In this document: one piece after another, positions 4,509 through 41,090 of the stretch
Layout: every line of letters begins with the position of its first letter
Position numbering within the stretch: position 1 is the first letter of the stretch
Origin: a virus
Lineage: Duplodnaviria > Caudoviricetes
Direction: 5' to 3' (one strand)
Virus record (IMG/VR): IMGVR_UViG_3300031364_000003
Span: 1-52,979 of that record
DNA: 52,979 bases
Program-made: the position numbers and the translations under genes
The notes under the pieces: model-generated
Database searches by the model: none
What the model saw: the letters and a program-made list of their open reading frames with translations, nothing else
Told to the model about the DNA's origin: nothing

Positions 4509-4783
4509 TAAATAAAGGAGATATAGACTTTAAAGTTATAGATTTTAGAGATATTAAAGAAGATAAAGGTATGGTATCTGGAGATGTGGCTGTCTATTGG
4601 ACAATAGATAAGCTAAAAATTAATGGAGAGACTATCTTTTCAATAAGTGGAGAAGATGAATATTTTATCCGTATATGTTTAGATGGTAATGAAGATATGT
4701 TTTCTGATGAAGATAAGGAAATGATAGAACAGGAGATGCTATATTTTATACAGCATACAGAATTTAGATACAAGGAGGAATGA
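4505..4783 (+). CDS. Hypothetical protein
   Basis: ATGA coupling. Confidence 0.75.
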   Translation: MINKGDIDFKVIDFRDIKEDKGMVSGDVAVYWTIDKLKINGETIFSISGEDEYFIRICLDGNEDMFSDEDKEMIEQEMLYFIQHTEFRYKEE

Positions 4784-5535
4784 ATATGAAACTATATAGT
4801 CTATTGGCTATAGCGACAGAGAAAAAAAAGGACTTTGCTAGTATGTTAGCAGAGATACAAAATCTTTTCATATCTAAGAAACATAAATTTGAGGGGAAAG
4901 ATAAAATATATACACCTTATGATCCAGAGAGCTTGGACATAGCTGAAAACGAAGTGGTTAGAGTTGTAACCACGGTGAAAAATAAGCTAGAGTACTTCGA
5001 ACAATTTGCTATAGATGCTATAGATTTAGCTATTACTATAGAAGAGGGGAATGCAGGTGCAACTGCTGTTTTGTATGTAGACGGTATAAGTTTTGGACTA
5101 TATAGTCCTACGAGTTTGTTGCAGCTAGAGAAATATATAAATAAGCTTATAGCGCTTTATGAGGATATCCCTACTCTAGACAACAGTAAAAAATGGTATC
5201 CTGATGAGGCTACAGGGGAGGGATACCATAAAACTGACCCACTTACTCAATACAGAAGTGTTAAAGTTGATAAGGCATTTGTATCAGTCCCAGAATCTAA
5301 TAAATTCCAAGCTCAAGCAGAACGTATAAAGGTATCTGAGCAGGTTGGTACATATGAAACAGTGTTCAGGTCTGGGGCTATAACATCTAGCTCTAAAGCC
5401 AGAATGTTGTCTAGATTGAATAAAGTTAGAGATGGCGTTATAGAAGCTAGATGTAAAGCTAATGATATACAGGTTAATGAAACTAATATAGCTAAGCTTA
5501 TATTTGATTATGTCCACGGCAGAGACTTGACATAA
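4780..5535 (+). CDS. Conserved uncharacterised helical protein upstream of a structured ncRNA
   Basis: 251 aa; AAGGAGG SD; the motifs LLQLEK, IPTLD..W and SGA..K..L.R resemble (from memory, unverified) a family of unknown function in phages and bacteria. Confidence 0.8.
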   Translation: MNMKLYSLLAIATEKKKDFASMLAEIQNLFISKKHKFEGKDKIYTPYDPESLDIAENEVVRVVTTVKNKLEYFEQFAIDAIDLAITIEEGNAGATAVLYVDGISFGLYSPTSLLQLEKYINKLIALYEDIPTLDNSKKWYPDEATGEGYHKTDPLTQYRSVKVDKAFVSVPESNKFQAQAERIKVSEQVGTYETVFRSGAITSSSKARMLSRLNKVRDGVIEARCKANDIQVNETNIAKLIFDYVHGRDLT

Positions 5536-6043: not shown

Positions 6044-6226
6044 ATGGAGATAGATATGGATAAAGAAACTAAAGTTTGTAAAAAATGTGGTGATGAGAAA
6101 AGTTTGTTTGAATTCCCGATAACCAGGAGTTATACGGGTAAAGCTAAGTACAGAAGACATATATGTAAAGAATGCTACAGAAAAGAAGCTAGGAGGAGAT
6201 ACCATGCAAGAAAAGTTCAATTTTAA
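6044..6226 (+). CDS. Small zinc-finger protein
   Basis: CKKC...F...CKEC, a motif common at HNH/EndoVII N-termini; promoter at 6004-6033. Confidence 0.7.
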   Translation: MEIDMDKETKVCKKCGDEKSLFEFPITRSYTGKAKYRRHICKECYRKEARRRYHARKVQF

Positions 6227-7022
6227 AGACACTATAGTCCTTGTATCTGATCTAAATGTAGATATGACCTATCAGGGTGAACTAAATGCTAAAGTTGTCC
6301 AAAAGATAGTTAGAGACTTTAGTTGGTTCGCATTTGGAGCTATCATGGTCAATATAAGAAAAGATGGCTCTATATATATAATTGACGGAAGACACAGGTA
6401 CGAAGCAGCCAAGCAACTTAGCTTTAAAGAAGTGCCTGCTAAAGTTGCAGAAAATCTAACATACCAGGAGGAAGCGACACTATGTAACTATATGTTAGCT
6501 AACAGAAGGACATATAGTATAGCAGAAAGCATGAAATCAGCCTTAATGGCTGGTGATGAAAAAATTGTAGCTATAAATAATATTCTTGAGAATAATGGTA
6601 TACATTTCGCCTTTAAAACAAACAGAGGAAGTAACTATAGAAAAAGAGGTAAACTTAGCTGTTTTAGCGCTTTAATTGGGATATATGATTCTAAAGGGCA
6701 TAAATTCTTTAGCGAGGTAATCTCTACTTTACATGATCTATGGTATTCAGATTTATATGGATGGCAGGAAGCGGCGTTAAAACAGCTTCCTATAAGAGGC
6801 CTAGCATTTTTTGTGTTCTACGGAATGAAGTCATCTCTATATGATAGAGATAGACTGATAAAGAAATGTGGAGGGATACCTAAAGCTGAGGAATACACGC
6901 TTGTGTCTAAACAAAATGCTTTATATGCTCCAGGAACTAAAGAAAAACATTTTGCCCTGGGAATGCTTAAAGACTATAACAATAAAGCTAGGATAAAACT
7001 GGACTTATCAAAATATAGTTGA
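6204..7022 (+). CDS. ParB/Srx-like N-terminal domain protein (DUF6551-like)
   Basis: YQ.EL...V..I..F...FG.I.V and YIIDGRHR motifs. Confidence 0.75.
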   Translation: MQEKFNFKDTIVLVSDLNVDMTYQGELNAKVVQKIVRDFSWFAFGAIMVNIRKDGSIYIIDGRHRYEAAKQLSFKEVPAKVAENLTYQEEATLCNYMLANRRTYSIAESMKSALMAGDEKIVAINNILENNGIHFAFKTNRGSNYRKRGKLSCFSALIGIYDSKGHKFFSEVISTLHDLWYSDLYGWQEAALKQLPIRGLAFFVFYGMKSSLYDRDRLIKKCGGIPKAEEYTLVSKQNALYAPGTKEKHFALGMLKDYNNKARIKLDLSKYS

Positions 7023-8306: not shown

Positions 8307-8536
8307 ATATTTGACAAATAACTATTAGAATGATAATATTAAATTGTCTAATAAATCAAAGTATATTTTTATTTATCCTTTTTTCTATCTTCGGCCTTCG
8401 GGCCTTTTTAATTTTCTGGAAAAAAAGTGCCTCTAGATTATGAGGCTAATTAATAGTATAATGGTTATTTATATTATACACCTTCTCGACATTTTTTGCA
8501 ATATGTTATATAATGGTAATATAGGGGGATATTGCC

Positions 8537-9907
8537 ATGAAGGTTGCAATGGACTTTAGCCAAACTAGTAATAAACAGGTTTTGTTCTTTAAAGCACATA
8601 GCAAATACATTGCCTATGGAGGCGCTAGGGGCGGTGGTAAGTCATGGGCTGCAAGGATGAAGGCTGTTTTATTATGCTTTAGATATAATAATCTACGAGT
8701 CTTATTACTAAGACGTACATTCCCAGAATTAGAGGCTAACCATATAATGCCTCTACAGATCATATTAAAAGATGCAGCTCATTATGTAGTTTCTAAAAAG
8801 AAGTTCATATTTCCAAATGGTTCATTTATCCAGCTAGGCTATTGCAAAAATGAATATGATTCTATCCAGTACCAGGGCCATGAGTATGATGTCATCATAT
8901 TTGAAGAGGCCACATTATTCTTAGAGTCTCAGCTTATCTTTATATCTACATGTCTGAGAACTACGAGGCCTGATTTTGTTCCAAGGATATATTATACATG
9001 TAATCCTGGTGGCCCATCACATCATTACATCAAGCGGCTGTTCATTGATAAAGCGTACGAAGGTACTGAGAATCCTGATGAATACACTTTTATTCCTGCA
9101 TCCATATATGACAATAGGGCTTTACTTGATAATGACCCTACGTATATTACAGTTCTGGATAATCTTCCGGATGAACTTAGAAAAGCACATAGAGACGGTG
9201 ACTGGGATGCTTTATCTGGGCAATATTTCCGAGAATTCAGAAGAAGTTCACATGTTATCGAGCCTTTTGATATTCCTAAAGGCTGGACACGCTATGTTAC
9301 TTTAGACTATGGCCTTGATATGACTGCGGCTTATTGGATTGCTGTCGATTATGAAGGATATTGCTATTGTTATAAAGAGCTATATGAAAAAGACCTTATA
9401 GTCTCGGATGCTGCGGCCAAATTATCTGAGATTTCTAAAGGTGAAAATATAAAGTATTACTATATGCCTCCTGATATAAGGACAAGGAAACAGGATACTG
9501 GTAAATCAGGATTGCAATTATTTGCAGAAAATGGTATAATAGGTATAATAACAACGAATGACAGGGAATCTGGTTGGTTATGCCTCAAGGAGCTCCTTAA
9601 GCCTTGGGGAAGTCAATTGGTTCCGAGATTACGGTTCTTTAACACATGTAGAAATATAATAAAATGCTTGCCTATGGTTCAAAGGGATATGAAGAATCCA
9701 AATGATATCTCTAAAGAGCCACATGATTTGACACATGGCCCGGATTCTCTGAGGTACTTTGCTAGTACCTGGATAAAGAAGCCGGAGCATGATGTTGACC
9801 TAACATTATCAGGAACCTATTACATAGGTGAATTGCTGATGAAAGGTTATTCTAAAACTGTTATAAAGCGTATGGCTTTAAGCGGTAAAATTAGTATAAT
9901 TGGTTAA
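8537..9907 (+). CDS. terL: Terminase large subunit
   Basis: Walker A GGARGGGKS; Walker B IIFEEA; TCNPGG; nuclease motifs LDYG and HGPDSLRY. Confidence 0.95.
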   Translation: MKVAMDFSQTSNKQVLFFKAHSKYIAYGGARGGGKSWAARMKAVLLCFRYNNLRVLLLRRTFPELEANHIMPLQIILKDAAHYVVSKKKFIFPNGSFIQLGYCKNEYDSIQYQGHEYDVIIFEEATLFLESQLIFISTCLRTTRPDFVPRIYYTCNPGGPSHHYIKRLFIDKAYEGTENPDEYTFIPASIYDNRALLDNDPTYITVLDNLPDELRKAHRDGDWDALSGQYFREFRRSSHVIEPFDIPKGWTRYVTLDYGLDMTAAYWIAVDYEGYCYCYKELYEKDLIVSDAAAKLSEISKGENIKYYYMPPDIRTRKQDTGKSGLQLFAENGIIGIITTNDRESGWLCLKELLKPWGSQLVPRLRFFNTCRNIIKCLPMVQRDMKNPNDISKEPHDLTHGPDSLRYFASTWIKKPEHDVDLTLSGTYYIGELLMKGYSKTVIKRMALSGKISIIG

Positions 9908-9928
9908 TAAGAATAAAGGAGAGTTCTT

Positions 9929-10819
9929 ATGAAACCAAGTATCTATTTTCTTGATGAACCTGTCGGTTCTGTAAAATCCGAATTTCTAAAACTATGTACA
10001 GAAGTTCCAACACCTAAGAATGCATCAGTTATATATACACACAGAACACAAATTCCAGAAGGCTGTGAGCCTAAGCTGGTTATATGTCCATGTACATCTA
10101 CTAAACATCTAAGCTACAATGGTCCTGTAATCTATCTAAATGACAAAGCCTATCTAAAAGAGCATGTACATTCTACTGCTGAATTTACTATTTGTGCAAT
10201 GCTAAGTATCTTAAGAGTAAATGAAGACGAACTCTATCACACACGTGTAGGGCTTATTGGTGGTGCTGGAAGAGTAGGGCAACAAGTATGTGAAAAGCTT
10301 TATGGGCTGACTAAAGTTGTACCTATGATCTATGATCTCAACACAGTACCAGAATCGCTAAAGGGAAAGTGTGTTCAAACTAATTGGCGGTCTGAACTTT
10401 ACGAAGAATGTGACCTTATAAGCATTCATTTATCTGAATCAGAACTAACAAAAAACTTCATAAATCTATTTGACTTTAACCTTATGAAAAAACATGGGGT
10501 TAAATATCTAATCAACACATCAAGAAGCTCAGTTATAGAACCTAAAGCTCTTTTAGATTCTATAGCAGACTTTAACCATGTGTTTCTTGATGTTACGGAA
10601 GATTATCCAGAAGATATTGTAGATAGTCTTAAGCTAATACAGGAGATAACACAAGGAACTAGAGTTCTAATTACACCTCATGCTGCTGGATCTGCTAAGC
10701 CATCTAGGTTGGCTACAGACACTTATGTCCTGAATAAATTTAAGGATTGGTTTGATAAAGAGAGTTTTAAAGATAGCTTGGACAAATATCAATTACCTAG
10801 AGATTGGATGTGGATATGA
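9929..10819 (+). CDS. D-isomer-specific 2-hydroxyacid dehydrogenase-like protein
   Basis: STAEF, Rossmann VGLIGGAGRVG, INTSR, LDV, ITPHAAG. Confidence 0.85.
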   Translation: MKPSIYFLDEPVGSVKSEFLKLCTEVPTPKNASVIYTHRTQIPEGCEPKLVICPCTSTKHLSYNGPVIYLNDKAYLKEHVHSTAEFTICAMLSILRVNEDELYHTRVGLIGGAGRVGQQVCEKLYGLTKVVPMIYDLNTVPESLKGKCVQTNWRSELYEECDLISIHLSESELTKNFINLFDFNLMKKHGVKYLINTSRSSVIEPKALLDSIADFNHVFLDVTEDYPEDIVDSLKLIQEITQGTRVLITPHAAGSAKPSRLATDTYVLNKFKDWFDKESFKDSLDKYQLPRDWMWI

Positions 10820-11037
10820 TGCTAGATAGATGGGCTAAACCTGTAGAAGATGTACCTCCTCAAAATTCTAAATATATGAAACTTAAGATTTTTAGACTTG
10901 ATGAATATCCACAGCCTGATAATGCTGTAAATGAGTTTATTATAGACCTACAGAAACGGGGTATTCCCAACCAAATGACTACTCTAGAGACTGTAATCTA
11001 TGTACTCTATGAATGTTCAGGCGGTGATTCAAATTGA
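10804..11037 (+). CDS. Hypothetical protein
   Basis: Overlaps both neighbours in the operon. Confidence 0.6.
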   Translation: MDVDMMLDRWAKPVEDVPPQNSKYMKLKIFRLDEYPQPDNAVNEFIIDLQKRGIPNQMTTLETVIYVLYECSGGDSN

Positions 11038-11786
11038 CAAAGATAATTCTAGATGCCTGCAACAACCATCTAGGTAACCATGACATACTAGTTGCTATGA
11101 TTAAAGAGGCTAAAAGGCTTAAGGCCGACTATATTAAGTTCCAGTTATTTAACCATGAGAGACTAAGTAGTCTATACCCTAACTATTCTGAGTATAAGAA
11201 AGAACTTGAGAAATGCCAGATAGATAGATCAAAACTAGGCTGTATATTTAATACATGCCAGAGTGTAGGTATAACGCCTATGTTTACTATATTCAGTAGT
11301 GATAGGGTAACTTTTTTGGAGAAATATGCTAAGGATAATGGGATAAAGCAGTATGCAGTAAAGATAGCTTCTAGCGATATGAGTAACTATGTACTTGTTC
11401 AAGAGGTGCTTGATACTTTTGATACTGAACGCTTTATCTCTTGCGGGATGCATACTAAACAGGAAATAGCTGCTGTGAGAAAGCACTATAGCAACCTTGG
11501 CATAAACTGGTTATACTGTGTATCTATGTATCCAACACCTAAAGAGTATATAGACTTAAATGAGATGGTTCTGTTTGATGGGTTCTCAGATCATACGAAT
11601 ACTACAGATATGGCTCTAAAAGCTTTATCGCTTGGTATCCAATTTCTTGAGATGCATTTTACACTTGGTAGATCGCTGCCATGTAAGGACTCTATAGTAT
11701 CTAAAGTGCCTAGTGAGATAGAAAAAATTGTACATTATAGAGACTATCTAGCTTCTATAGATAATTATAAACACAGATTCTTATGA
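11034..11786 (+). CDS. neuB: N-acetylneuraminate (nonulosonate) synthase, lacking the C-terminal SAF domain
   Basis: NHLG, IKFQ, KIASSD, CVSMYPTP, GFSDHT, EMHFTL. Confidence 0.92.
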   Translation: MTKIILDACNNHLGNHDILVAMIKEAKRLKADYIKFQLFNHERLSSLYPNYSEYKKELEKCQIDRSKLGCIFNTCQSVGITPMFTIFSSDRVTFLEKYAKDNGIKQYAVKIASSDMSNYVLVQEVLDTFDTERFISCGMHTKQEIAAVRKHYSNLGINWLYCVSMYPTPKEYIDLNEMVLFDGFSDHTNTTDMALKALSLGIQFLEMHFTLGRSLPCKDSIVSKVPSEIEKIVHYRDYLASIDNYKHRFL

Positions 11787-11790
11787 AAGG

Positions 11791-12927
11791 ATGATAAAAA
11801 TGAGTAACGAAGGGAGAGCGACTGGCTTCCCCAAGACACAGTCGCTGAAAAATATAAAGAAAAATAATAAAGTTTGCATAATTGGTTTTGCTCCCAGTTG
11901 GAACCTGGCCCCATTTAAAGACATAGAGGGAGTCGATTTCTGGGGGATAAATGAATTATACATTTATCTAAACCAAATCCAGGTTCCAATTAATAAATTT
12001 TCTGCCTGGTTCGAAATCCATGATATCAAAAATTCGCCAAGTAAGCAAGCCCCTAGACACCAAAATTTTCTAAAAACTTTAGAAATTCCATTAATAACAC
12101 AGCAGTATTGGCCTGAATATCCTACTTCTATAGAATATCCAAGGAAAGAAATAAAAAAGATGACAAATAGAAATTTTATTCTTGATGAAAACCATTCTGG
12201 CTTTTCTGACTATTCAAATCAAATTTCGTGGATGATTGCTCTGGCAATATATCTAAAATATAAAGAAATAATGGTATATGGTGTAGATATGGCCCAGACT
12301 TCTGAATATGCTTTCCAGAGAGCTTCATGTCAATTTTTCATAGGTCTTGCTGCTGGTAAAGGTATAAAGCTTAAGATACCTAAATCATGTGAGCTTTTAA
12401 AGGCTGGATGTGACTATGGATTCCAGTCGGATAATTCAGGTAGATTTGATGCTAAGAAGCGTATAGAAGGCCATAACCAGGCACTACAGCAACTTAGGAT
12501 AAAGCAGGCTGAAATAAAATATTATCAGCATAGATTAGATGAAGAGCTTATCAAAAAATTAGCAGTTCTGGATGCTCAGATTGATGAAGCTGAAAATGAA
12601 ATAAGAAGAATAGAAGCTGGGAATCTTGCTAACAATAGTGTCCTGGACTTCTTAAAATCCATGCCTACAAATCCACAAGAAGCATATGGGAAAAGGGATT
12701 CTATAGTTAAGCAGACTCAAACATTATTTGACACTAATGTCAATAATATTAAGGCTATAAAATCTAGAGTCATAGAGCTTAAGAAGAAAAAAGATAATGT
12801 CCTTAAGGATACAGCTATAAATAAGACACTCCTGGACGACGAGTATGACATAAACAAAGGTGGGGCACATGAACTAAAAGGCCACATCAAGGCTCATGAA
12901 CATAGTCTAAATAACAATCTGGTGTAG
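11791..12927 (+). CDS. Candidate nonulosonate transferase (Maf/CstII-like Rossmannoid domain) with coiled-coil C-terminus
   Basis: KVCIIGFAPS..WGINE..MIALAIYLKYKEIMVYGVDM parallels the IxxxGPS/xN/GxD motifs of GT42 and Maf proteins; sits between neuB and neuC. Confidence 0.6.
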   Translation: MIKMSNEGRATGFPKTQSLKNIKKNNKVCIIGFAPSWNLAPFKDIEGVDFWGINELYIYLNQIQVPINKFSAWFEIHDIKNSPSKQAPRHQNFLKTLEIPLITQQYWPEYPTSIEYPRKEIKKMTNRNFILDENHSGFSDYSNQISWMIALAIYLKYKEIMVYGVDMAQTSEYAFQRASCQFFIGLAAGKGIKLKIPKSCELLKAGCDYGFQSDNSGRFDAKKRIEGHNQALQQLRIKQAEIKYYQHRLDEELIKKLAVLDAQIDEAENEIRRIEAGNLANNSVLDFLKSMPTNPQEAYGKRDSIVKQTQTLFDTNVNNIKAIKSRVIELKKKKDNVLKDTAINKTLLDDEYDINKGGAHELKGHIKAHEHSLNNNLV

Positions 12928-12938
12928 GGGGTGTATTT

Positions 12939-13154
12939 ATGATTGTTTACAAGATAGCTGATAAGAATGGTAATTTTATAAAAACTTTCAGCAAAAGGAA
13001 AATATGGACAAAGCTAAATTGGCTAAAAACTGCTATAAACTATCGCCGGAAATATTCAGGTAATCCAGAACTTGAAGATGCTACAGTCATTATATATGAA
13101 CTAAAAGAGATAGCTAGAAAGTCAGTTAAAGATTATATGAAGGAGGGGTTCTAA
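12939..13154 (+). CDS. Hypothetical protein
   Basis: GGGGG SD. Confidence 0.7.
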   Translation: MIVYKIADKNGNFIKTFSKRKIWTKLNWLKTAINYRRKYSGNPELEDATVIIYELKEIARKSVKDYMKEGF

Positions 13155-14216
13155 ATGGACGAGAAAGCTCCTACAATCGATATCCTGGAAGAATTTGATG
13201 ATGAAGAATTCCAAAAAAAAAGAATACTTATATGGGTCGGAGGAAGGGCAAACTATGGCAGGCTAAAGATGCTAATAGATACGCTTTCTCAGGTACATAC
13301 TGTAGAGCTTATTATAGGTGATTATGAGGTTCCGAATTACTATGTCATAGCTGGCAGAGTACCTAATTTGATGTATTCTGATAGCTTCTCTAATTCTGCA
13401 AGGTCTGTATCGCTTGTTATACAAGGTGTAACCACAATCTTAGAATCTAGAGGCTCTTATGACTTAGCTATTGTACATGCTGATAGATTCGAGAACCTTG
13501 GTTTTGCAATAGCTTGTAGTTACTGTGGTATACCGCTTCTTCATACAGAAGGTGGTGAAGAATCTGGGCAGATAGATAACAAGGTTAGAAATGCTATAAC
13601 TTCTCTAGCTGATTATCACTGTGCAGCTACAGAGTTGGCATACAAGAAACTGATATGCAGAGGCTGTAATGCTATATTTGCAGGTAGCCCAGCTATAGAC
13701 TATATAAGGGAAATAGGCTATAGAACATGTAAAAGAGACTATGTACTTGCTGTATTTAATCCATCTGATACAGATGATTATACAGAATTCATAGCTGCTA
13801 TATCAAATATATCTGAGGTTTCACCTGTATTCTGGATACCTCCTGCTAATGACCCAGGTTGGAGAGAGATTGCTAAAGATTTATATAGACTTAATAATAT
13901 ATTTCTTATGGATAAGCTAACTCCTTATGAATATTACGATCTGTTATCCAGAGCTAGAGTTCTTGTGGGCAATACAAGCTCAGGCATTAAGGAAGGCTGT
14001 TATCTTGGTATTCCATATGTCTTAGTAGGCGATAGACAGATAGGGCGTGAAGTTGGGCCTAATGTTACCAAGGTTCCATGTAAGCATAGAGATATATTTA
14101 ATGCTGTAGAAGATATACAGAATGGCTGTAGATATGAGTACAATGGGATGTTTGGCGATGGGCACTCATGTGAAAAGATTCTTAAGTATATAGACAGCGA
14201 GGTGTTTGGGGGATGA
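13155..14216 (+). CDS. neuC: UDP-N-acetylglucosamine 2-epimerase (hydrolysing)
   Basis: GRANYG, HADRFE, HTEGGE.SG.ID..VR.AIT, GNTSSGIKE, VGDRQ.GRE, FGDG. Confidence 0.92.
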   Translation: MDEKAPTIDILEEFDDEEFQKKRILIWVGGRANYGRLKMLIDTLSQVHTVELIIGDYEVPNYYVIAGRVPNLMYSDSFSNSARSVSLVIQGVTTILESRGSYDLAIVHADRFENLGFAIACSYCGIPLLHTEGGEESGQIDNKVRNAITSLADYHCAATELAYKKLICRGCNAIFAGSPAIDYIREIGYRTCKRDYVLAVFNPSDTDDYTEFIAAISNISEVSPVFWIPPANDPGWREIAKDLYRLNNIFLMDKLTPYEYYDLLSRARVLVGNTSSGIKEGCYLGIPYVLVGDRQIGREVGPNVTKVPCKHRDIFNAVEDIQNGCRYEYNGMFGDGHSCEKILKYIDSEVFGG

Positions 14217-15403
14217 AAGAATTTTATAAATGTAAAATATGTAAAGCAATTATTTCAATGGAATTTGATTATTATGAAGAGTGTGATTTATGTGGAAAAA
14301 TAATATGTGAAAAATGCTTTGTCTATGGAAATGGTACTCAATATTGTCTTAAATGTTATGAAAAAAATATTAAAACTAAAAATGAAATAGTAAAAATAAA
14401 TAATAATTTACCTGCTAAATTAGAAGATTTGTCAAAATTTATATTGGTAGGTAAAGAAAAATTAGTTAGTGTTAAGGCTGAAATAAGAGCAATGAAACAC
14501 TTAAAAACAGCCAAAGAAGTTTACAAGCAAAAAGAAATTGAAGCGAAGGGTCTCGGAGGTGCGTTGCTATTGGCTAAAGTTCGCATTGGTGAGTTGTTTG
14601 ATGATATTCCTAAAGGAAGTGGTGGCGACAGAAAAAATGATATTATCAAAATCGACAGCGCTGTCGATTTTGATAATAAGCAAACAAAGCAAGAAAAAGT
14701 TAAAGACCTAGGATTTAGCCAAAAGGAATCAGAGAGATTTCAGCAGCTAGCAGCCAATAAAGATATAGTCGAGGAAGTAATTGAAAACAGCGAAGACATA
14801 CCAACTCAGACAGAATGCCTTAAGAAAATACAAGAAAAGAAAAAAGAACAAAGGAACAAAGAAAGACAGGAAACAATCAAGAATGTAAACCCCATCGAAG
14901 GAAAGTACAAAGTAATATATGCTGACCCTCCATGGAGTTATAACGATAAGCATGAATATAACGGAACTACAGGAGCAGAAACACATTACAATACAATGCA
15001 ATTAGATGATATATGCAATATGCCAATTAAAGATAAGACAGAAGATAATGCAGTTTTATTTCTATGGGGTGTTGTACCCCAGTTAGAGGAAGCTTTACAA
15101 GTGATAAAAGCTTGGGGATTTAAATATAAGACTCATTTTGTGTGGGATAAAGTTAAGCATAATATGGGGCATTATTCAAGTGTAAGACATGAATTATTGT
15201 TTGTTGCAACTAAAGGGAACTGCACACCTGAGAATATAAAATTGTTTGATAGTGTCCAGGTCATAGAGAAAAGTTCTAAACATAGTGAAAAACCTGAACA
15301 ATTCAGAGAAATAATTGATACATTGTACCCATCTGGGAACAGAATTGAATTATTTTCTAGAAAAAAAGTAAAAAATTGGGAAAGCTGGGGTGATGAAGTA
15401 TGA
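14213..15403 (+). CDS. MT-A70 family adenine methyltransferase with N-terminal zinc finger and GGDRK/HTH-like region
   Basis: IYADPPW, LFLW, WGFKYK, HSEKP, IELFSR, WGDE. Confidence 0.9.
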   Translation: MKEFYKCKICKAIISMEFDYYEECDLCGKIICEKCFVYGNGTQYCLKCYEKNIKTKNEIVKINNNLPAKLEDLSKFILVGKEKLVSVKAEIRAMKHLKTAKEVYKQKEIEAKGLGGALLLAKVRIGELFDDIPKGSGGDRKNDIIKIDSAVDFDNKQTKQEKVKDLGFSQKESERFQQLAANKDIVEEVIENSEDIPTQTECLKKIQEKKKEQRNKERQETIKNVNPIEGKYKVIYADPPWSYNDKHEYNGTTGAETHYNTMQLDDICNMPIKDKTEDNAVLFLWGVVPQLEEALQVIKAWGFKYKTHFVWDKVKHNMGHYSSVRHELLFVATKGNCTPENIKLFDSVQVIEKSSKHSEKPEQFREIIDTLYPSGNRIELFSRKKVKNWESWGDEV

Positions 15404-15858
15404 CTCCATATTATAAAGAAAAATTAAAAGAAGGTTTAGCTTACCAAGAATTTATAGAAAAAAAATCAGAAGAAAGAGGAATGTATTTGCATAATTATAC
15501 ATCAAGGATTAATCAATATGAAATAGGTGAAAATCCAGAAGGTATAGAGATTAAATTTGATGGGCTTTATTCTAAAACAGGTAATTTATTTATTGAGACT
15601 GCTGAGAAGACCAATCCTCAAAACAAGAGATATATGAAATCAGGTATTTTTAGAGGTGATAATTCAACATCATTACTTATTGGCAATTACGATATAGCCT
15701 ATGTTTTTGCAACTACTACATTAAGACAATTAGCTAAAAGTTCAAGAATTATCGAATCTAAAACAAAAACTAGCTTGGGTTTCTTGATTAAAAAAGATGA
15801 TATCTCAAAATATTGTACTGGAACTTGGAATTTTAGTATAAAGGAGATGATAGCATGA
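15400..15858 (+). CDS. PD-(D/E)XK-like protein coupled to the methyltransferase
   Basis: G..YQ, GIEIKFD, TGNLFIE; ATGA overlap. Confidence 0.55.
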   Translation: MTPYYKEKLKEGLAYQEFIEKKSEERGMYLHNYTSRINQYEIGENPEGIEIKFDGLYSKTGNLFIETAEKTNPQNKRYMKSGIFRGDNSTSLLIGNYDIAYVFATTTLRQLAKSSRIIESKTKTSLGFLIKKDDISKYCTGTWNFSIKEMIA

Positions 15859-16544
15859 TTTACGCAGTTATACCGTTTCGACAAGGGTCTAAGCGGCTAA
15901 AGAACAAGAGTATGCTAAATATATCTGGAATCCCTTTGGTTAGGCACACGATACAACAGGCCCTTTTAGCTACAGACAATATCATAGTAACTACAGATTA
16001 CCCTATCCCAGAGCTTTCTAAAAAAATACCTGAACTAGATAACCCAAATATAATGTGCCACAAGAGAAACCCTGTTCCAGATAACCAAACAGTAAATGAA
16101 TATATAACCCAATTAATAGCTGCATATGACATAAAGGAGGACGACTCCATATGTTTATTACAGCCTACATGCCCATGCAGAGAGCCTATGGATATAAGGA
16201 ATGCAATTACTATGTATTCTACATTGAGAGGAAGCTGTCTTATATCTGTGTATAAGATAGGTTCTGCTGGCAAACTATATAAGTCTAGAGATGGGAAGAA
16301 AGGCTCTTCATACACAGGTCTTACGGCAACATTTCAGCATGAGAAACCTTTGTACATAAGGAACTCAAGCATATATATATTTAAGGTTAGGCTGCTACTT
16401 ACCAGGAATACTATATTTGCTGAGGAAACTTTGTTATATGAAATGCCACTTCACAGGAGTATAGATATTGATACTAAAGGTGAGTTTGACTTAGCTAAAC
16501 TTATTATCGAAGGGGGGTTGTCTGGATGGTCGCCACATTTATAG
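15855..16544 (+). CDS. neuA: CMP-N-acetylneuraminate (acylneuraminate) cytidylyltransferase
   Basis: AVIPFRQGSKRLKNK, VTTD, LLQPTCP.R, N.SIY, SIDIDT. Confidence 0.92.
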   Translation: MIYAVIPFRQGSKRLKNKSMLNISGIPLVRHTIQQALLATDNIIVTTDYPIPELSKKIPELDNPNIMCHKRNPVPDNQTVNEYITQLIAAYDIKEDDSICLLQPTCPCREPMDIRNAITMYSTLRGSCLISVYKIGSAGKLYKSRDGKKGSSYTGLTATFQHEKPLYIRNSSIYIFKVRLLLTRNTIFAEETLLYEMPLHRSIDIDTKGEFDLAKLIIEGGLSGWSPHL

Positions 16545-16702
16545 TTGGCTTTATACTACTTGCTGAGGCTATATTTATTGTATTCTATGAGCTTAGCTGT
16601 AGGATTAGGGATTTGGAGAATAAGATAGATGTTCCTGAAAGGGAAGATAAGCTAAAGGACTATAGAAATGAGAGGGGCTTATTTACTAATAAGAAGAGGT
16701 GA
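16526..16702 (+). CDS. Small membrane protein, 58 aa (absent from the ORF track)
   Basis: MVATFIVGFILLAEAIFIVFYEL...; GGGGGG SD; fills the gap. Confidence 0.6.
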   Translation: MVATFIVGFILLAEAIFIVFYELSCRIRDLENKIDVPEREDKLKDYRNERGLFTNKKR

Positions 16703-16707
16703 TTTAG

Positions 16708-16962
16708 ATGGATAGGCTTAGGCAATTAAGATGTAAGCATTGTAATAGGTTGCTCTTGAACGAATTATCTGGGGGCCTTGGTTTCGACAATAGCACTAAT
16801 ATGCTAAGTCTTGTTCCTAAAGATGATGATATAGTTCTAGAAATTAGGTGCCCACGGTGTAAGAAGTACTATGTGCTTTTCCAGTTAGGAGGTGTTAGTT
16901 ACTATGAGCATGGCTACGAGCGAAGAGATCAAGAGATGGAGAGACCAAAAGGAATATACTAG
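16708..16962 (+). CDS. Com-like zinc-ribbon protein
   Basis: LRCKHCNRLL...EIRCPRCK. Confidence 0.7.
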   Translation: MDRLRQLRCKHCNRLLLNELSGGLGFDNSTNMLSLVPKDDDIVLEIRCPRCKKYYVLFQLGGVSYYEHGYERRDQEMERPKGIY

Positions 16963-18895
16963 AGACAATTTCATGACAGATGAAGAGAAGATGTATATAA
17001 ATAACTGTATAACCCTATTAATGCATACAGTTAGCATATATGCTGAGGAATTTGATAAGCTTGAGACAATAGAGGAATTTTATGGCAACTCATATGATGA
17101 TGAAAAAGATATGCCAAATTCTAAAATGAACCTACTTAACTCAGCTATTGAGGGTATGGTTAGCCAACTAGTAGATAAAAATTTACAGACTAGTGTAAAA
17201 GGTGTAGGCCCAGAAGATGAACAGTTTGCTGCTGTCGTAAGGACTGGGGCTAATTGGATAATTAGAAATAATGATATGTTCAAGAAACTTAGCCTATATG
17301 CTAGAAGATACGTAAAATTTGGCTATGCATGGATAAAGCCTGTCTTTGACCCTTCATATGCTGGTGACTTTGGTATTTCTAAGATAATGATTCCTCCTAT
17401 AAATAGTGTGTTTGTAGATACTAATGTCACAGATGTCACAAGGCTAGAGGAGGCTTCGTTTATAGCTGAGACCATCCTGGTTGATAGACGCTATGTTATA
17501 GAGAACTATGGTCTTGATAAGGCATCAGCTCTGGATTATGGACAGAATGAGTTTAGAGATAATGGAGTATTCAAGTCTAAATTTACACCACAGGCCCAGG
17601 ATGATTCTATAGTTATAATTCAATGGTGGTCTAAAGCAGAGGGGAAACTTAGGCTACAGGAATTCTCTAGTTGTGGTGTCCTGCTTTTTGATTCTCATAA
17701 ACCTGGGGATAGGAAAACTAACCAGAAAGATTCGGGTATAAAGAGAAAGTCTTTCTATAAATATGTAGGAGATAAGTATCCATATTTCTTAGATGTTAAG
17801 TATTCTGTAGAAGGTATGCTGCTTGGCTTTGGCGATGGATGGTTACTTATACCATTACAGAAAGCTATAAATGAGCTGTATGACAAAATAAGGATACAGA
17901 TGCGTCCACATTTAATAGCTGTGGATAACATGAGTGATATAGACATTGAGAGCTTTGATGAAAACTCATTTGAACCTGTATATTTCGATGGTGCTCAGGT
18001 AAGTGGCCGTGACCCTGTTAAATATATACCTTGGGGGACTATAACTAATGATATGTTTCAGCTTATAGATATGATACATCTAGAGGCCCAGAGGGTTATA
18101 AGGTTCTCGAACACTATGATAGGGCAGGGCCAGGCTGAGACTGCTACAGAAGCAGCAATTCAGCAGCAACAAGGTAACTCGCATATAGATCATGAGAAGA
18201 CTAAGCTTGAGCATACTATGGCTGATGTAATTAAGTATTGTATAGGAATGATGATGGAATTATCTAAATCTGGAAAATCTCTAAGGATAAATAATGATAA
18301 AGATGAATATGAGTGGGTAGACTTTAGACAATTTGCTAAGGTTCCTGTTCAGATTCCTGCGACTGCTGAGTATACTAAGCAATATACTACAGCTAACCCA
18401 GGAGTTGAGCCACCTAAATATCAAACAGTTGAAGAAAATGGTAAAACAATAACCAAGTGTATAGAGCTTGATCTCGATATATCTGTAGGTTCTGGACTTC
18501 CTAAGAATCCAGCGTTTCTATGGACTATGATAGAAAAGCTAGCACAGCTTATGGTTATAGATACTGATGAACAACAGCCTGTTCCTAAGCCTGCTATAAA
18601 CTGGGCAGAGATTAGAGACTTTATGAAAAATATTCTTGGTATACCTATTAAAGATGATGACCAGATGAAAAAGTTTGTAGAGACTATGAACAAGCTTAAG
18701 GTTCAACAGATGCAAAAGGTTAAAGGTGCTGGGTCTATTACGCCTAACCAGAATATAGCCCCTGGGCCTGGAGGTATGGGTGGAAATCAGCCAGAAGAGC
18801 AGCCAGGGACTCAGAATCTAACTGCTGGTGGAGGTATGCAGCAATCTATGCAGCAGGAAACTATGGGCCAGAGCGGAGGAATGCCAAATGGCTAA
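16904..18895 (+). CDS. Portal protein (P22-like)
   Basis: ~660 aa upstream of scaffold and capsid; G.AW.K, V..D, Q..INE, G....TATEA..QQ; Q/G-rich tail; AGGAGG SD before 16904. Confidence 0.85.
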   Translation: MSMATSEEIKRWRDQKEYTRDNFMTDEEKMYINNCITLLMHTVSIYAEEFDKLETIEEFYGNSYDDEKDMPNSKMNLLNSAIEGMVSQLVDKNLQTSVKGVGPEDEQFAAVVRTGANWIIRNNDMFKKLSLYARRYVKFGYAWIKPVFDPSYAGDFGISKIMIPPINSVFVDTNVTDVTRLEEASFIAETILVDRRYVIENYGLDKASALDYGQNEFRDNGVFKSKFTPQAQDDSIVIIQWWSKAEGKLRLQEFSSCGVLLFDSHKPGDRKTNQKDSGIKRKSFYKYVGDKYPYFLDVKYSVEGMLLGFGDGWLLIPLQKAINELYDKIRIQMRPHLIAVDNMSDIDIESFDENSFEPVYFDGAQVSGRDPVKYIPWGTITNDMFQLIDMIHLEAQRVIRFSNTMIGQGQAETATEAAIQQQQGNSHIDHEKTKLEHTMADVIKYCIGMMMELSKSGKSLRINNDKDEYEWVDFRQFAKVPVQIPATAEYTKQYTTANPGVEPPKYQTVEENGKTITKCIELDLDISVGSGLPKNPAFLWTMIEKLAQLMVIDTDEQQPVPKPAINWAEIRDFMKNILGIPIKDDDQMKKFVETMNKLKVQQMQKVKGAGSITPNQNIAPGPGGMGGNQPEEQPGTQNLTAGGGMQQSMQQETMGQSGGMPNG

Positions 18896-20555: not shown

Positions 20556-21068
20556 ATGCCTGCCAATAATTTTAATTTCAGAAATAAAAAAGGAACTATG
20601 ATTCCTATGTATGTCGGTACAACTGACGAAGTTTATTCTAGCGATATAGGAAGAATAGTTTTCAGAGCAACTACAGTTAATCAAGTTAGCTTATGCTGTA
20701 CTGATTCAGATGGATTGTCAACAACTCCTATTGCTGGGTTTATTGCTGCTGTTCCTACAGCTACAACCAGAGGAACAACAACTCCTGCTGTGCCTATTTA
20801 TATATATAAATTAGACCCACAGTTAGAGTTAGAGGCTAAATATACTACAGCTAATGGTGGTGGACATCCTGCTTCGTCTGACTTAGGAAAGTATATAGGT
20901 TTCTATATCTCAACTACTACAGTTACAGGGCTACAGCTTGATATGACTTATTGTTCTCAAAATCCTGGTACATCAAATGCTTTATGGTTCCAGATTTCAG
21001 GTTACAGTACCAATAGGAGAATAGTTTATGGATATCCTGTTGCTGCTAGTTCATGTCTCTGGTTATAA
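20556..21068 (+). CDS. Probable capsid decoration/cement protein, Ser/Thr-rich
   Basis: Lies between scaffold and major capsid gene; beta-rich. Confidence 0.6.
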   Translation: MPANNFNFRNKKGTMIPMYVGTTDEVYSSDIGRIVFRATTVNQVSLCCTDSDGLSTTPIAGFIAAVPTATTRGTTTPAVPIYIYKLDPQLELEAKYTTANGGGHPASSDLGKYIGFYISTTTVTGLQLDMTYCSQNPGTSNALWFQISGYSTNRRIVYGYPVAASSCLWL

Positions 21069-21083
21069 GAAAGGGGGATAATT

Positions 21084-21980
21084 ATGGCTTATATGATGAC
21101 TGCGGATATTTCCAGGATGTTGCTTGCTGGACAGAAGGAAATATTCATGAGAAATATGGAATCTTATCCTATTGAGTATCCCGGTTTCACAACCAGAAAA
21201 GACAGTAACAAGCAGGCTGAGACTTATGATTCTATGGGAAACTTGAAAGCTGCCGCTCTAAAAGTTGAGGCAGATAAGATTACATATGGTAAGGTTACAC
21301 AGGCTTACCAGACTACAATTACTAACTACACCTGGGCAAACGGTTTTGAGGTAACAATGGAGGCTTCAAAATATGACCTCTACGGTGCTGTCAACTCCGT
21401 GAAAGCCAAAGAGCTTGCAAGGACAATGAGAGAGCTTGAGGAAACTAATGCTATATACTATGTAGATAATGCTACATCAGTAAACTTAGCTGATGGGGTT
21501 CCTTTGGGTTCAAATTCTCATCCACTTGTAGATTCAGATGCTCTTAATGATACGCTTGCTACAAGCTCTACAATTGAAGACCCTGATAACCACAAAACTA
21601 TGATTAACATGTTCTATGCATTCAAGAACCATGCCGGAGGCCCAATGAAAGCTACACCTAGGAAGGCTTTGACTCATTTCGTTAATCAGTTAACTGTTGA
21701 GGAAGTATATGGGTCTATGAATAAGCCACAGGAAATGTCAAACACAAAAAATGTACTTCCAAAATTACAATGGACATATTCTACTTATATGTCGTCTCAA
21801 ACTGCTTGGATGATGTGGGATACAAGCTTTGAGCACATTATAATGCAATGGTTTGAAGGTACAAGCTTCGACGCTGATACTGACAAAATTTACACAAAGA
21901 ACATGTACTTCAATGCTATAGCAATGTATGGCATTGGTTGTCTTCCAAATATAGGCATCGTATACAATGCTGGTGCATAA
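21084..21980 (+). CDS. Major capsid protein (HK97 fold, Mu gpT-like)
   Basis: S.KQAE, K.E...I.Y, LARTM, ADGVPL.S.SHP, Y.SSQTAW. Confidence 0.85.
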   Translation: MAYMMTADISRMLLAGQKEIFMRNMESYPIEYPGFTTRKDSNKQAETYDSMGNLKAAALKVEADKITYGKVTQAYQTTITNYTWANGFEVTMEASKYDLYGAVNSVKAKELARTMRELEETNAIYYVDNATSVNLADGVPLGSNSHPLVDSDALNDTLATSSTIEDPDNHKTMINMFYAFKNHAGGPMKATPRKALTHFVNQLTVEEVYGSMNKPQEMSNTKNVLPKLQWTYSTYMSSQTAWMMWDTSFEHIIMQWFEGTSFDADTDKIYTKNMYFNAIAMYGIGCLPNIGIVYNAGA

Positions 21981-21997: not shown

Positions 21998-22495
21998 ATG
22001 CCTAAAAATGTTATCGGAACTACTTTATCAACAAGTTTCCACGGCAGTACAGATTATCCAATCTTTGCGCCTGCTGGATGGTGTTACTTAAGGCAACAGG
22101 TAGAGGCTCATGCATGGACTTCTGATGGGCTTGACCCATCTACAGCATCATGTTATGGAGTTAGTTATATAACTGGTACATATGGTACAGATGGTGGGGC
22201 ATGCCCTTTGACAGTAGCTGCTCCAAAACCAGGATGTATAAAGACAGTTGTTTTAGATACAACTAAGACTTCTACAGATTTACCATACATTGATTTAACT
22301 ACAGCTTGTGGCTTATTAAGTGCTGGTTCGTCTGGATATAACTTTATCAACTTTAGTTCTCTTGCATCAGATGTCCAGAGTGTAACGCTTATAGGTTTAA
22401 CTACAGCTTATTGGGGACTATTGGCAATTGCTGGTTCTACATTGTTCTGGCAGAATGCTGCTGGCATCAGATCATCTACAACACCTAGTTCATAA
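21998..22495 (+). CDS. Virion structural protein, Ser/Thr-rich
   Basis: AAGGAG SD; follows the capsid gene. Confidence 0.7.
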   Translation: MPKNVIGTTLSTSFHGSTDYPIFAPAGWCYLRQQVEAHAWTSDGLDPSTASCYGVSYITGTYGTDGGACPLTVAAPKPGCIKTVVLDTTKTSTDLPYIDLTTACGLLSAGSSGYNFINFSSLASDVQSVTLIGLTTAYWGLLAIAGSTLFWQNAAGIRSSTTPSS

Positions 22496-22518
22496 GGGAG
22501 GCCCTACGGGGCCTTTAT
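22494..22518 (+). terminator. Hairpin or terminator after the head genes
   Basis: GCCC-TACG-GGGC followed by CTTTATT. Confidence 0.55.
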
Positions 22519-23647: not shown

Positions 23648-23680
23648 ACATTCAAAATGAAGATATTAGGAGGTGAGAGA

Positions 23681-24019
23681 ATGTATTCTAGAGATGTCTT
23701 TAAGAAGATAATTGCTATAGTCCCTGAAACTATTGCTTCTACGGCAACATCTACAGATTACAAGGCTGGGCTTATATCGTCTACAAGGCTCAGGACGCTA
23801 AATGGCTCAAGTTCTAGATATTGGGGGGCTAATTTTTCTGTAACTATTGAAGCTACTACAGGAGCTATATATATATTACCGAGTGAGGACGCTGAGCCTA
23901 CAAGTACTAATGCATTCAAGCTTCATGAAGGAAACAGTATTGATTTAAGAGTAACTGATTTCTTATCAGTAAAAGGTGACTCAACAACTGCCCAACTACA
24001 AGCAATAGTCTGGGAATAG
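23681..24019 (+). CDS. Structural protein, Ser/Thr-rich
   Basis: AGGAGGTG SD before 23681. Confidence 0.7.
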   Translation: MYSRDVFKKIIAIVPETIASTATSTDYKAGLISSTRLRTLNGSSSRYWGANFSVTIEATTGAIYILPSEDAEPTSTNAFKLHEGNSIDLRVTDFLSVKGDSTTAQLQAIVWE

Positions 24020-24030: not shown

Positions 24031-24366
24031 ATGAGTGAATGGTATTTATTTACTGGTGCGGCATCAAGCGATGCATTAGCTACAGCATCTAGTTTTCTCG
24101 GAATAGTAAATAGCAACTTTAGAAAATATAACTCTGATGCTGATTGGATGATAGAACCTATATCTCTTGATACTACAGCTACAGCTTCAAGAACGATAGG
24201 GACAACTGTTATGTATTATGGAATGCCATCTCCGCCAACTTATTTGTTAACTAATACTTCTAATTCTACATATGCTGCGGCTACAAGTTGGAGCATAGCA
24301 TGGTTTTCTACCCAGACAATACTTGACTTCTTACTTAAGGAGGCTAAATTATGGGGAAAACTATAG
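24031..24366 (+). CDS. Structural protein, very Ser/Thr-rich
   Basis: SD present; about 30 of 111 residues are S/T by hand count. Confidence 0.7.
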   Translation: MSEWYLFTGAASSDALATASSFLGIVNSNFRKYNSDADWMIEPISLDTTATASRTIGTTVMYYGMPSPPTYLLTNTSNSTYAAATSWSIAWFSTQTILDFLLKEAKLWGKL

Positions 24367-40490: not shown

Positions 40491-41090
40491 ATGGATAAAA
40501 AAATAGACGAAAGCAAGTTAAATGTTATCAAAAAGATAGTATTTGATAATGGACATGAGCTGGAAATGGATGAGTATACTGCATATGCAGTGTTCGTAAG
40601 TTTCCCACCTGGCTACCTAAAGGATGCAGACCCAGATATTGGGGCTTCCATTGTAAGAATGGGGGGATACCAGAATATAAAACATAACTATCAGTTAGCT
40701 ATGGCGATTAAAGCTGCCTCACAAAAAATGAAAGATGCAGCTGTTAAGAAATTAGATGATAAAGACGACATATTAGATACTCTAAGAGAACTACATGCCA
40801 TAAAAAAAACTATAGAAAAAAAAGGCTACGAAAATTGCAATAAAGAATGTAAAGAATATGCTGAAAAACTTATACAGCTAGGGATTAAAAATCCCTTGTT
40901 TATGAAGCTAACTGATAAAAGGTTTGAGTCTAAAGCTGATACTGAAACCTTTATAAAAGAGAATATAGATATAATAAAAGCAATTACAGATTTCTACGGG
41001 TTTAACGTAGGAGCTGATGATTTGATAAATAAATTAGATATTTTAAGAAAGAGAAAGGATGAAGAAAATGAACGTGAAAAAGTTAATTAG
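40491..41090 (+). CDS. Hypothetical protein
   Basis: Promoter TTGACA-17-TAAAAT at 40421-40449; AAGGAG SD. Confidence 0.75.
   Translation: MDKKIDESKLNVIKKIVFDNGHELEMDEYTAYAVFVSFPPGYLKDADPDIGASIVRMGGYQNIKHNYQLAMAIKAASQKMKDAAVKKLDDKDDILDTLRELHAIKKTIEKKGYENCNKECKEYAEKLIQLGIKNPLFMKLTDKRFESKADTETFIKENIDIIKAITDFYGFNVGADDLINKLDILRKRKDEENEREKVN

Follow-up and report, generated by a model that had tools for sequence, protein, structure and literature searches.

A predicted nonulosonic acid cassette between the terminase and portal genes of a phage, with a candidate GT42/Maf-like transferase whose relatives lie beside capsid genes

The stretch of DNA analysed here, hereafter called the window, spans 52,979 bp and corresponds to an entire viral record, IMGVR_UViG_3300031364_000003 of IMG/VR, that is complete, bears direct terminal repeats and has a G+C content of approx. 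35%. Positions 9929–16544 hold a cassette of putative genes for a nonulosonic acid, a nine-carbon sugar, located between the genes for the large terminase subunit and the portal protein; within it lies the gene of ORF378, a protein that is a candidate transferase for this sugar. From the gene content of the cassette, the fold modelled for ORF378, and the synteny and co-occurrence of related genes in other viral genomes, we infer that the phage makes a cytidine monophosphate (CMP)-activated sugar of the N-acetylneuraminic acid (Neu5Ac) type, and that ORF378 O-links it to a protein of the capsid surface; in our judgement this reading, in which the acceptor is taken from the gene context, is somewhat probable. 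A wider proposal, that a phage-specific GT42/Maf-like family O-glycosylates fibre or decoration proteins of the capsid surface with self-made nonulosonic acids, is put forward more tentatively, as one whose merits nearly balance its doubts. The genes on which the argument turns are the following:

8537–9907, + strand: large terminase subunit, the 5' boundary of the cassette (Pfam Terminase_6N, 38.8 bits; Terminase_3, 34 bits)
9929–10819, + strand: oxidoreductase of the D-isomer 2-hydroxyacid dehydrogenase family, 296 residues (PF02826, 71.6 bits)
11034–11786, + strand: short NeuB-family nonulosonate synthase, 250 residues (PF03102, 116.5 bits)
11791–12927, + strand: ORF378, candidate nonulosonate transferase, 378 residues (fold and family profile)
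13155–14216, + strand: NeuC-type hydrolysing UDP-GlcNAc 2-epimerase, 353 residues (PF02350, 135.1 bits)
15855–16544, + strand: putative CMP-nonulosonate/ulosonate synthetase (cytidylyltransferase, NeuA), 229 residues (PF02348, 65 bits)
16892–18895, + strand: portal protein, the 3' boundary of the cassette (PF16510 P22_portal, 30.2 bits)
21084–21980, + strand: major capsid protein (PF25209 Phage_capsid_4, 27 bits; capsid-family hidden Markov model (HMM) cl15, 1.7e-115)
21998–22495, + strand: cl1, a Ser/Thr-rich, fibre/spike-like beta-sandwich protein (cl1 HMM, 4e-11)

The ends of the interval 9929–16544 coincide with the start of the open reading frame (ORF) for the dehydrogenase and with the stop of that for the cytidylyltransferase. 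All the genes from terminase to portal are on the + strand and are packed tightly or overlap, and a sequence scan found no terminator-like site on this strand between 8537 and 20612. An initial annotation of this DNA had described neuB, neuC and neuA motifs, a dehydrogenase and an unassigned ORF as one run inside the packaging and head genes; the Pfam matches bear out these five genes and their coordinates, and four more went unmentioned there, an MT-A70 methyltransferase gene, ORF152 and two small ORFs. HMM and structure searches of the kind it had suggested returned enzymes of the NeuC, NeuB and NeuA kinds, and its proposal that the phage has a transferase of its own has become credible with the GT42/Maf-like fold and motifs of ORF378.

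Gene assignments were based on the gathering cut-offs of Pfam and the equivalog cut-offs of NCBIfam. The four pathway enzymes are divergent, and each of them exceeds its Pfam threshold. The NeuB-family protein (PF03102 cut-off, 22.1 bits) aligns through residues 22–234 with positions 1–227 of the 241 in the profile, and it scores 110.6 bits with TIGR03569 (cut-off 399.65; profile positions 3–249 of 329) and 83.6 bits with the PseI model (cut-off 340.25). In related loci the NeuB cluster has a median length of 253 residues, and among solved structures the top match in a comparison with the PDB was 6ncs_A, a synthase of 290 residues, in which GYSDHS and IEKHYT align with GFSDHT and LEMHFT of the phage protein; we take the histidines of these SDH and EMH motifs to be metal ligands. 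The NeuC-type enzyme (PF02350, Epimerase_2, cut-off 30.6 bits) scores 180.1 bits with TIGR03568 (cut-off 235.9) versus 31.4 bits with the non-hydrolysing wecB; its closest solved relative is the epimerase domain of human GNE (4zht_A, E 3.2e-29), with which its DRFE and H-x-EGGE-x-SG-x-ID blocks align, and LegG (5xvs_A) is matched at E 8.7e-21. The best NCBIfam match of the synthetase (PF02348, CTP_transf_3, cut-off 22.6 bits) is PseF, at 52.7 bits versus a cut-off of 205.7, and the KdsB models score 27–39 bits, below their cut-offs. The translation of the dehydrogenase (PF02826, 2-Hacid_dh_C, cut-off 25.1 bits) contains the motifs GGAGRVG and TPHAAG, presumably the GxGxxG motif and the region of the catalytic histidine; its best NCBIfam match is PGDH, at 61.4 bits versus 454, all 19 models fall far under their cut-offs, and a homologue search returned only proteins from phages or unnamed and generically named proteins from metagenomes.

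Profile searches of the complete genome found neither a DegT-type aminotransferase nor a PseB/PglF-type 4,6-dehydratase, in agreement with the initial annotation, which had left the choice between a product of the Neu type and one built from legionaminic (Leg) or pseudaminic (Pse) precursors of the host. Because these two enzymes are absent and NeuC is nearer to the enzymes of the UDP-N-acetylglucosamine (UDP-GlcNAc) type than to LegG, we favour a Neu5Ac-type product, formed from UDP-GlcNAc and phosphoenolpyruvate (PEP); with matches that stay below equivalog cut-offs, a product from host Leg or Pse precursors is the less favoured alternative. That the cassette makes a CMP-nonulosonate of some kind is, from these family assignments, very probable.

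The AlphaFold2 model of ORF378 has a mean predicted local distance difference test score (pLDDT) of 91.2 and consists of an alpha/beta domain and, C-terminal to it, a long antiparallel coiled-coil hairpin; the first, resembling GT42, Maf and MptE, spans approximately residues 14–205, and the hairpin residues 215–374. With VIA-align, the sialyltransferase Cst-I (2p56_A) gave a Z of 11.6 with a root-mean-square deviation (rmsd) of 4.0 over 169 residues, located within residues 14–205 of the model; Maf (5mu5_A) gave a Z of 11.4 over 228 residues, but with an rmsd of 16.7, and the MptE HPPK, which is not a transferase, and SteA gave 10.7 and 9.8, respectively. Foldseek placed Cst-II chains on top (E 1.5e-3, probability 1.00). 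Likewise, a profile built from 69 members of the family matches Cst-II (2drj_A) in the PDB with an E of 7.8e-5, and pairs IvGfApS with IAGNGPS, WGlN with FRCN, and YGVdMA with SGIDFY, i.e., the GxxPS, N and G(V/I)D motifs; the matches of this profile are led by Cst-II and Cst-I, and no HPPK chain is present among the 60 matches listed. A set of 14 close relatives shows no variation at residues G32, S36, N54, G164, D166, E172 and Y173, and the MptE-like/Maf family of Pfam is weakly matched by 4 of the 69 members. Since profile searches revealed no transferase of the GT2 or GT1/4 type elsewhere in the complete genome, ORF378 is its sole candidate transferase, and on the strength of the sequence profile and of the genomic associations described below we consider it probable that it transfers the CMP-sugar made by the phage.

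The family of ORF378 is a large and nameless one, and nearly all of it is viral. A search of 1.84 billion cluster representatives returned 2,888 relatives at E ≤0.001, which share the N-terminal region of approx. 210 residues; those that carry a name are all annotated as 'hypothetical protein', come from metagenomes and lie on contigs of up to approx. 52 kb, and in a homologue search, too, all matches were metagenome proteins with a generic name or none. A scan of bacterial and archaeal genomes yielded eight loci, all of them on contigs of metagenome-assembled genomes, so that no host can be assigned from it. Among 50,697 deposited phage records, tblastn with ORF378 gave one weak match, a gene of a Microcystis phage labelled 'type 11 methyltransferase' that adjoins the terminase genes; no cultured representative was found by this single-sequence search, which is an insensitive one. 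In one homologue of 630 residues, an intein domain (PF14890) lies within the transferase.

The arrangement seen in the window is present in other viruses. Viral loci with a relative of ORF378 number at least 533; the comparison set comprised the best 80 of them together with one close relative, 81 in all. Dehydrogenase, NeuB and transferase genes occur together in 17 of the 81, mostly followed by NeuC and NeuA, and the cytidylyltransferase gene lies between NeuC and the portal gene in 14 loci. Both the terminase gene (TerL) on the 5' side and the portal gene on the 3' side are visible in 10 of the 17, and in the others the contig ends or the flank was not detected; two pairs of these loci, L005/L006 and L008/L009, are near-duplicates. 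The initial annotation had pointed to synteny with TerL and portal as a check, and the cassette does lie between them in these relatives. The cassette genes of the window are 37–77% identical to their homologues on other viral contigs, and because these keep the gene order, the genes can be regarded as real. A megablast search with positions 8537–18895 gave no match among deposited phages. Some cassette phages (L004, L005, L006, L011 and L024) carry two or three paralogues of the transferase and two of the dehydrogenase, a hint that there may be several acceptors or linkages.

Outside the cassette lineage, the gene for the transferase is located apart from the sugar genes, and clustering of its neighbours, with Pfam and PHROG matches, places it downstream of the major capsid gene, usually with cl1 between the two. 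The capsid genes concerned belong to three families: Phage_cap_E/phrog_1005, Mu gpT-like/Phage_capsid_4 and HK97 Phage_capsid/phrog_10. The comparison covers 89 transferase genes in 79 loci, which form 60 clusters at 80% identity with these contexts:

after cl1 and a capsid gene: 20 of 60 clusters
after cl1 only: 2 of 60 clusters
no more than three genes 3' of a capsid gene: 8 of 60 clusters
in the cassette: 17 of 60 clusters
other: 10 of 60 clusters
no flanking sequence: 3 of 60 clusters

The contexts linked to cl1, to a capsid gene or to both add up to 30 of the 60 clusters, and several loci with an 'other' context resemble the capsid arrangement with a capsid family outside the profiles built. 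The cl1 gene is immediately 5' of the transferase gene in 30 of the 79 loci, and the pair of capsid and cl1 genes is kept in the window and in the cassette locus L046. The cl1 protein of the window contains 26% Ser+Thr, which is rank 2 of its 70 gene calls (median 10.6%), and the family as a whole has a median of 28% versus 12.7% in neighbouring genes. Its six best VIA matches are all parts of phage fibres, spikes or baseplates, a capsid spike among them (Z 8.8–5.7; the next match is at 4.5), and at E ≤0.001 there are 50 viral models similar to it, tail-fibre and collagen-repeat proteins among them; the cl1 profile had no match in the PDB sequences at E 1. Other small proteins of the structural module in the window are also rich in Ser/Thr (20556–21068, 23657–24019 and 24031–24366, all on the + strand), with 22–27%.

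The linkage to sugar genes was also followed at the level of whole genomes, in the viral records behind 50 non-cassette transferase loci, seven of which are at least 90% complete. The families found were:

NeuB: 17 of 50 records; 7 of 7 near-complete genomes
CTP_transf_3: 18 of 50 records; 7 of 7 near-complete genomes
Epimerase_2: 8 of 50 records; 1 of 7 near-complete genomes
2-Hacid_dh_C: 5 of 50 records; 1 of 7 near-complete genomes

The records with no match are mostly fragments of 5–60% completeness. In the complete genomes coordinate arithmetic places NeuB roughly 9–19 kb from the transferase gene, which indicates that the latter stays with the capsid gene and not with the sugar genes. 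The core of the system that is kept across phage lineages is therefore made up of NeuB, the CMP-synthetase and the transferase, and NeuC with the dehydrogenase is a variant of the lineage of the window. The dehydrogenase is kept in the 17 cassette loci and elsewhere occurs only in records that bear NeuC; the matches of 2-Hacid_dh_C above the family cut-off come from four records, all of which also have NeuC. Its candidacy as a core part of the system was rejected, given its presence in one of the seven near-complete genomes and only beside NeuC; it would instead be accessory to the NeuC-type route and, by analogy, probably modifies the sugar or one of its intermediates. The rarity of NeuB in phages, against which the figure of seven in seven has to be read, is indicated only by the absence of PHROG families (NeuB, ORF378, NeuC, NeuA, cl1 and two other transferase homologues matched none at E 0.001) and by a single marginal match in the 50,697 deposited phage records, obtained with the insensitive single-sequence tblastn.

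Several other features accompany the cassette or bear on the host and on the alternatives discussed below:

8486–8514: promoter-like site upstream of the large terminase gene (sequence scan)
10804–11037, + strand: small conserved ORF, 77 residues from a TTG start, overlapping the dehydrogenase and NeuB genes
12939–13154, + strand: small ORF, 71 residues, with a homologue only in locus L003
14213–15403, + strand: MT-A70 DNA methyltransferase (PF05063, 85.8 bits; phrog_359 'DNA methyltransferase', 1.2e-62)
15400–15858, + strand: ORF152, whose sole match is phrog_13596, of unknown function (1.8e-5)
16708–16962, + strand: Mu Com-like zinc-ribbon protein (PF10122 Zn_ribbon_Com, 24.2 bits; phrog_6417 'translational regulator')
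22497–22516, + strand: terminator-like hairpin after the cl1 stop (stem of 8 pairs, 5 of them GC; consensus match only)
41059–41991, + strand: LPKTG-anchored secreted protein with signal peptide, sortase motif, transmembrane tail and Ser/Thr/Pro-rich stalk (Gram_pos_anchor)

The small ORF at 10804–11037 probably starts at an ATG near 10816, and phmmer found homologues at the equivalent position in six loci. Searches of Pfam, NCBIfam and PHROG gave no credible match for it, and those of the Atlas gave rows at chance level only; the idea that it represents a detached SAF domain was rejected, as none of these searches supported it. The ORF at 12939–13154 has no Pfam, NCBIfam or PHROG family match. 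The methyltransferase, whose N-terminal region is Cys-rich and zinc-ribbon-like, and ORF152 form a pair that is found in none of the 81 other loci, and for this reason they are taken to be an insertion peculiar to the phage of the window, outside the sugar module. Several relatives carry a different insert of approx. 700 bp at the junction of NeuC and NeuA, which suggests that this junction is a hot spot for insertion. The ORF of the Com-like protein overlaps the portal start (16892) and is kept before the portal gene in 10 loci; from its position and family this protein may control translation of the portal gene or of the cassette.

The host seems to be a Gram-positive bacterium, as pointed to by the LPKTG-anchored protein, a lysin of the Amidase_3 family and an NlpC/P60 protein that also contains PG_binding_1. 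The gene for the NlpC/P60 protein (30096–31973) lies upstream of a gene at 32032–37251 (+ strand) for a protein of 1,739 residues with a C-terminal LPD38 'large polyvalent protein' domain. Genes for DUF7873 and for a DUF6551/ParB-like nuclease (4780–5535 and 6204–7022, + strand) are found 5' of the lysin and terminase genes, and both are kept in the relative L002. Near-identical sequence occurs in two DNA runs labelled as salt marsh metagenome, from two studies, which contained 0.96 and 0.54 of the words sampled from 9929–16544, and one of which may be the source; marine sediment and marsh runs contained smaller shares, which give no evidence on habitat.

According to the mechanism proposed here, the phage would make its own CMP-activated nine-carbon sugar late in infection, most likely of the Neu5Ac type. 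NeuC would convert UDP-GlcNAc to N-acetylmannosamine (ManNAc), the short NeuB would condense ManNAc with PEP, and the cytidylyltransferase would activate the product with cytidine triphosphate (CTP), with the 2-hydroxyacid dehydrogenase-family enzyme probably tailoring the sugar or an intermediate. ORF378 would then transfer the sugar directly to Ser/Thr residues of a surface protein of the virion, as Maf does on flagellin, and its coiled-coil tail could serve in oligomerisation or docking. The virion as target, already proposed in the initial annotation, has gained from the position of the transferase gene beside the major capsid gene in other phages and from its co-occurrence with NeuB and NeuA, the acceptor itself being read from gene context. 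That it is a virion protein is, in our estimate, a little better than an even proposition; cl1 would come first among the candidates and the capsid protein second, and the choice of cl1 in particular is possible though rather doubtful.

Certain observations temper this proposal, and they concern each of its parts. All four pathway enzymes stay below the NCBIfam equivalog cut-offs, and in consequence the families to which they belong do not tell which sugar they handle; furthermore, NeuB is a TIM barrel only and has no C-terminal SAF/antifreeze-like domain such as that of the classical enzymes. The fold scores of ORF378 do not separate GT42 from the MptE HPPK, which is approx. one Z unit away from Cst-I, and the fold alone does not prove transferase activity. 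Its match to MptE-like (PF01973) reaches 17.5 bits versus a cut-off of 34.6 and covers residues 133–170 only, it has no match to CST-I of Pfam (PF06002) at E 0.01, and weak CST-I matches occur in only 4 of the 69 family members (best E 0.00049). In addition, the alignment of the family profile with Cst-II stops before the catalytic base and the phosphate-binding tyrosines. As for the acceptor, the transferase gene of the window is not adjacent to the capsid gene, and so the capsid link of this phage is borrowed from its relatives; the AlphaFold2 model of cl1, a beta-sandwich, has a moderate mean pLDDT of 67.5, and composition may have helped the clustering of this Ser/Thr-rich family. The survey was restricted to the best 80 of at least 533 viral loci, and the seven complete genomes represent approx. 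five lineages by capsid family and size, not seven independent cases.

The alternatives differ in what they make of ORF378 and of the target. It is improbable, in view of the evidence, that ORF378 is not a glycosyltransferase and is instead a kinase of the MptE type, an enzyme akin to methyltransferases or a factor with a role in structure or assembly, with the CMP-sugar used by a host transferase or never transferred. The Z scores of the MptE HPPK and SteA, close to that of Cst-I, the sub-threshold Pfam match and the label 'type 11 methyltransferase' of the single deposited-phage relative agree with this view; weighing against it are the lead of the sialyltransferases Cst-II and Cst-I in the PDB profile matches, with no HPPK among those listed, the co-occurrence with NeuB and CMP-synthetase in all seven near-complete genomes, and the position of the gene between NeuB and NeuC. 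Much less probable still is that the sugar is placed on the phage DNA, as a hypermodification against restriction. In Mu, Com controls the DNA-modifying Mom, and phage glycosyltransferases reportedly hypermodify DNA; the location of the cassette between packaging genes, with an embedded MT-A70 DNA methyltransferase and a Com-like protein downstream, would fit such a role. Nevertheless, that methyltransferase is absent from the 81 other loci and lies outside the module, a profile search of the genome found no thymidylate-synthase-like hydroxymethylase, and the adjacency to capsid genes together with the Ser/Thr-rich neighbour points to a protein. A Tet/JBP search of the genome gave no match, and its search control was silent too.

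The remaining alternative is that the sugar goes onto the host surface, i.e., onto wall polysaccharide, teichoic acid, flagellin or the phage's own LPXTG-anchored protein, where it could block superinfection or keep the progeny off lysed cells; we consider it unlikely, though less so than the two preceding ones. The known targets of GT42 are cell-surface glycolipids and that of Maf is flagellin, and the product of 41059–41991, secreted and LPKTG-anchored with a Ser/Thr/Pro-rich stalk, is a cell-wall-anchored protein in a seemingly non-integrating phage, hence an alternative glycosylation target. Phage neuA/B/C clusters have been interpreted elsewhere as modifiers of the host surface, the customary view of such genes (10.1101/655167), which also counts against a virion target, and the prophage enzymes EpaA/EpaB alter capsule pseudaminic acid in Acinetobacter (PMC12053666). 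On the other side, profile searches of the complete genome found no tyrosine integrase or serine recombinase, which argues against a role in lysogenic conversion; the genes lie within the late packaging and head run, in other phages the neighbours of the transferase gene include capsid genes of three families, nothing that would suggest a membrane location or secretion was noticed in the sequence or model of ORF378, and there is no second glycosyltransferase with which a lipid-linked glycan could be built.

If the proposed reading is correct, tailed phages are not limited to glycans borrowed from the host but bring all that is needed to synthesise, activate and, with a dedicated enzyme, transfer sialic-acid-like sugars for coating their capsids, a new chemistry for virion glycosylation. 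It would provide a function for approx. 2,900 protein clusters of a nameless family, and the 'auxiliary metabolic genes' neuABC of phages would be reinterpreted as genes of structural maturation; under the wider proposal, 'sialylated' tailed-phage capsids would be widespread in environmental viromes, with the genome of the window as a complete example of the NeuC type. Acidic nine-carbon sugars on the capsid could affect its stability, aggregation, adhesion to mucus or sediment, and recognition by hosts, grazers or the immune system; moreover, enzymes of the ORF378 type could become compact tools for protein O-sialylation, and the virion-glycosylation claim can be tested by heterologous co-expression, for which the uncultured host is not needed. 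Phage-borne neuABC, nonulosonate tailoring by prophages, glycosylated virions of actinobacteriophages and the legionaminic acid of the archaeal virus HRPV-1 are already known. A literature search, with supplements and most subscription journals outside its scope, found no description of the transferase family, of its synteny with capsid genes or of a virion-directed nonulosonate pathway in phages.

The system can be compared with several described ones. Virions of actinobacteriophages are glycosylated, with capsid and tail proteins as targets and the glycosylation genes located among the structural genes. The initial annotation had drawn this parallel, which holds as an analogy in that such genes are also embedded among structural genes in the window; the enzyme class (no transferase of the GT2 or GT1/4 type is found here), the sugar class and the phage-encoded synthesis of the sugar are different. 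With the bacterial NeuC-NeuB-NeuA route to CMP-Neu5Ac the window shares three enzyme families, encoded in one operon; it differs in that its enzymes are below the equivalog cut-offs, that NeuB lacks the SAF domain, like 6ncs, and that every member of this lineage adds a 2-hydroxyacid dehydrogenase. The enzymes Cst-I and Cst-II of Campylobacter (GT42, PF06002) are the best profile and fold match of ORF378, with the GxxPS, N and G(V/I)D motifs aligned; ORF378 departs from them in an identity of just 17–18%, in its lack of a Pfam CST-I match and in its extra coiled-coil hairpin. The Cst enzymes sialylate galactose of lipooligosaccharide and are not known to act on protein.

A nonulosonate on the particle of a prokaryotic virus has a precedent that qualifies the initial annotation, which knew of no sialylated phage virion: the VP4 spike of HRPV-1 bears 5-N-formyl-legionaminic acid, which is implicated in adsorption (PMC6137143). 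This virus is, unlike the phage of the window, archaeal and pleomorphic, and its glycan is N-linked and wholly host-made, with no part of the pathway encoded by the virus (PMC6137143). For the dehydrogenase as a tailoring enzyme, a precedent is given by EpaA/EpaB of Acinetobacter baumannii prophages, in which oxidoreductases and a CTP_transf_3 domain remodel a nonulosonate by epimerising pseudaminic acid; these oxidoreductases differ from that of the window in being an aldo-keto reductase and a short-chain dehydrogenase, in belonging to temperate phages and in acting on the host capsule (PMC12053666). The model for the proposed transfer is given by the Maf enzymes of Gram-positive bacteria, which attach Neu5Ac or 3-deoxy-D-manno-octulosonic acid (Kdo) directly to Ser/Thr of flagellin and have a core that resembles the GT42 enzyme Cst-II (10.1101/2020.06.03.131540). 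ORF378 differs from Maf (PF01973; 5mu5) in its length of 378 residues versus 632 in the solved Maf chain, in a Pfam match below the cut-off, in belonging to a family that is nearly all viral and in having a capsid or fibre gene, not flagellin, as its neighbour. The two families seem to share a donor-binding core of the GT42 kind with a helical region C-terminal to it, both are linked to NeuB and CMP-synthetase genes, and both adjoin the gene of a Ser/Thr-rich protein of a surface filament.

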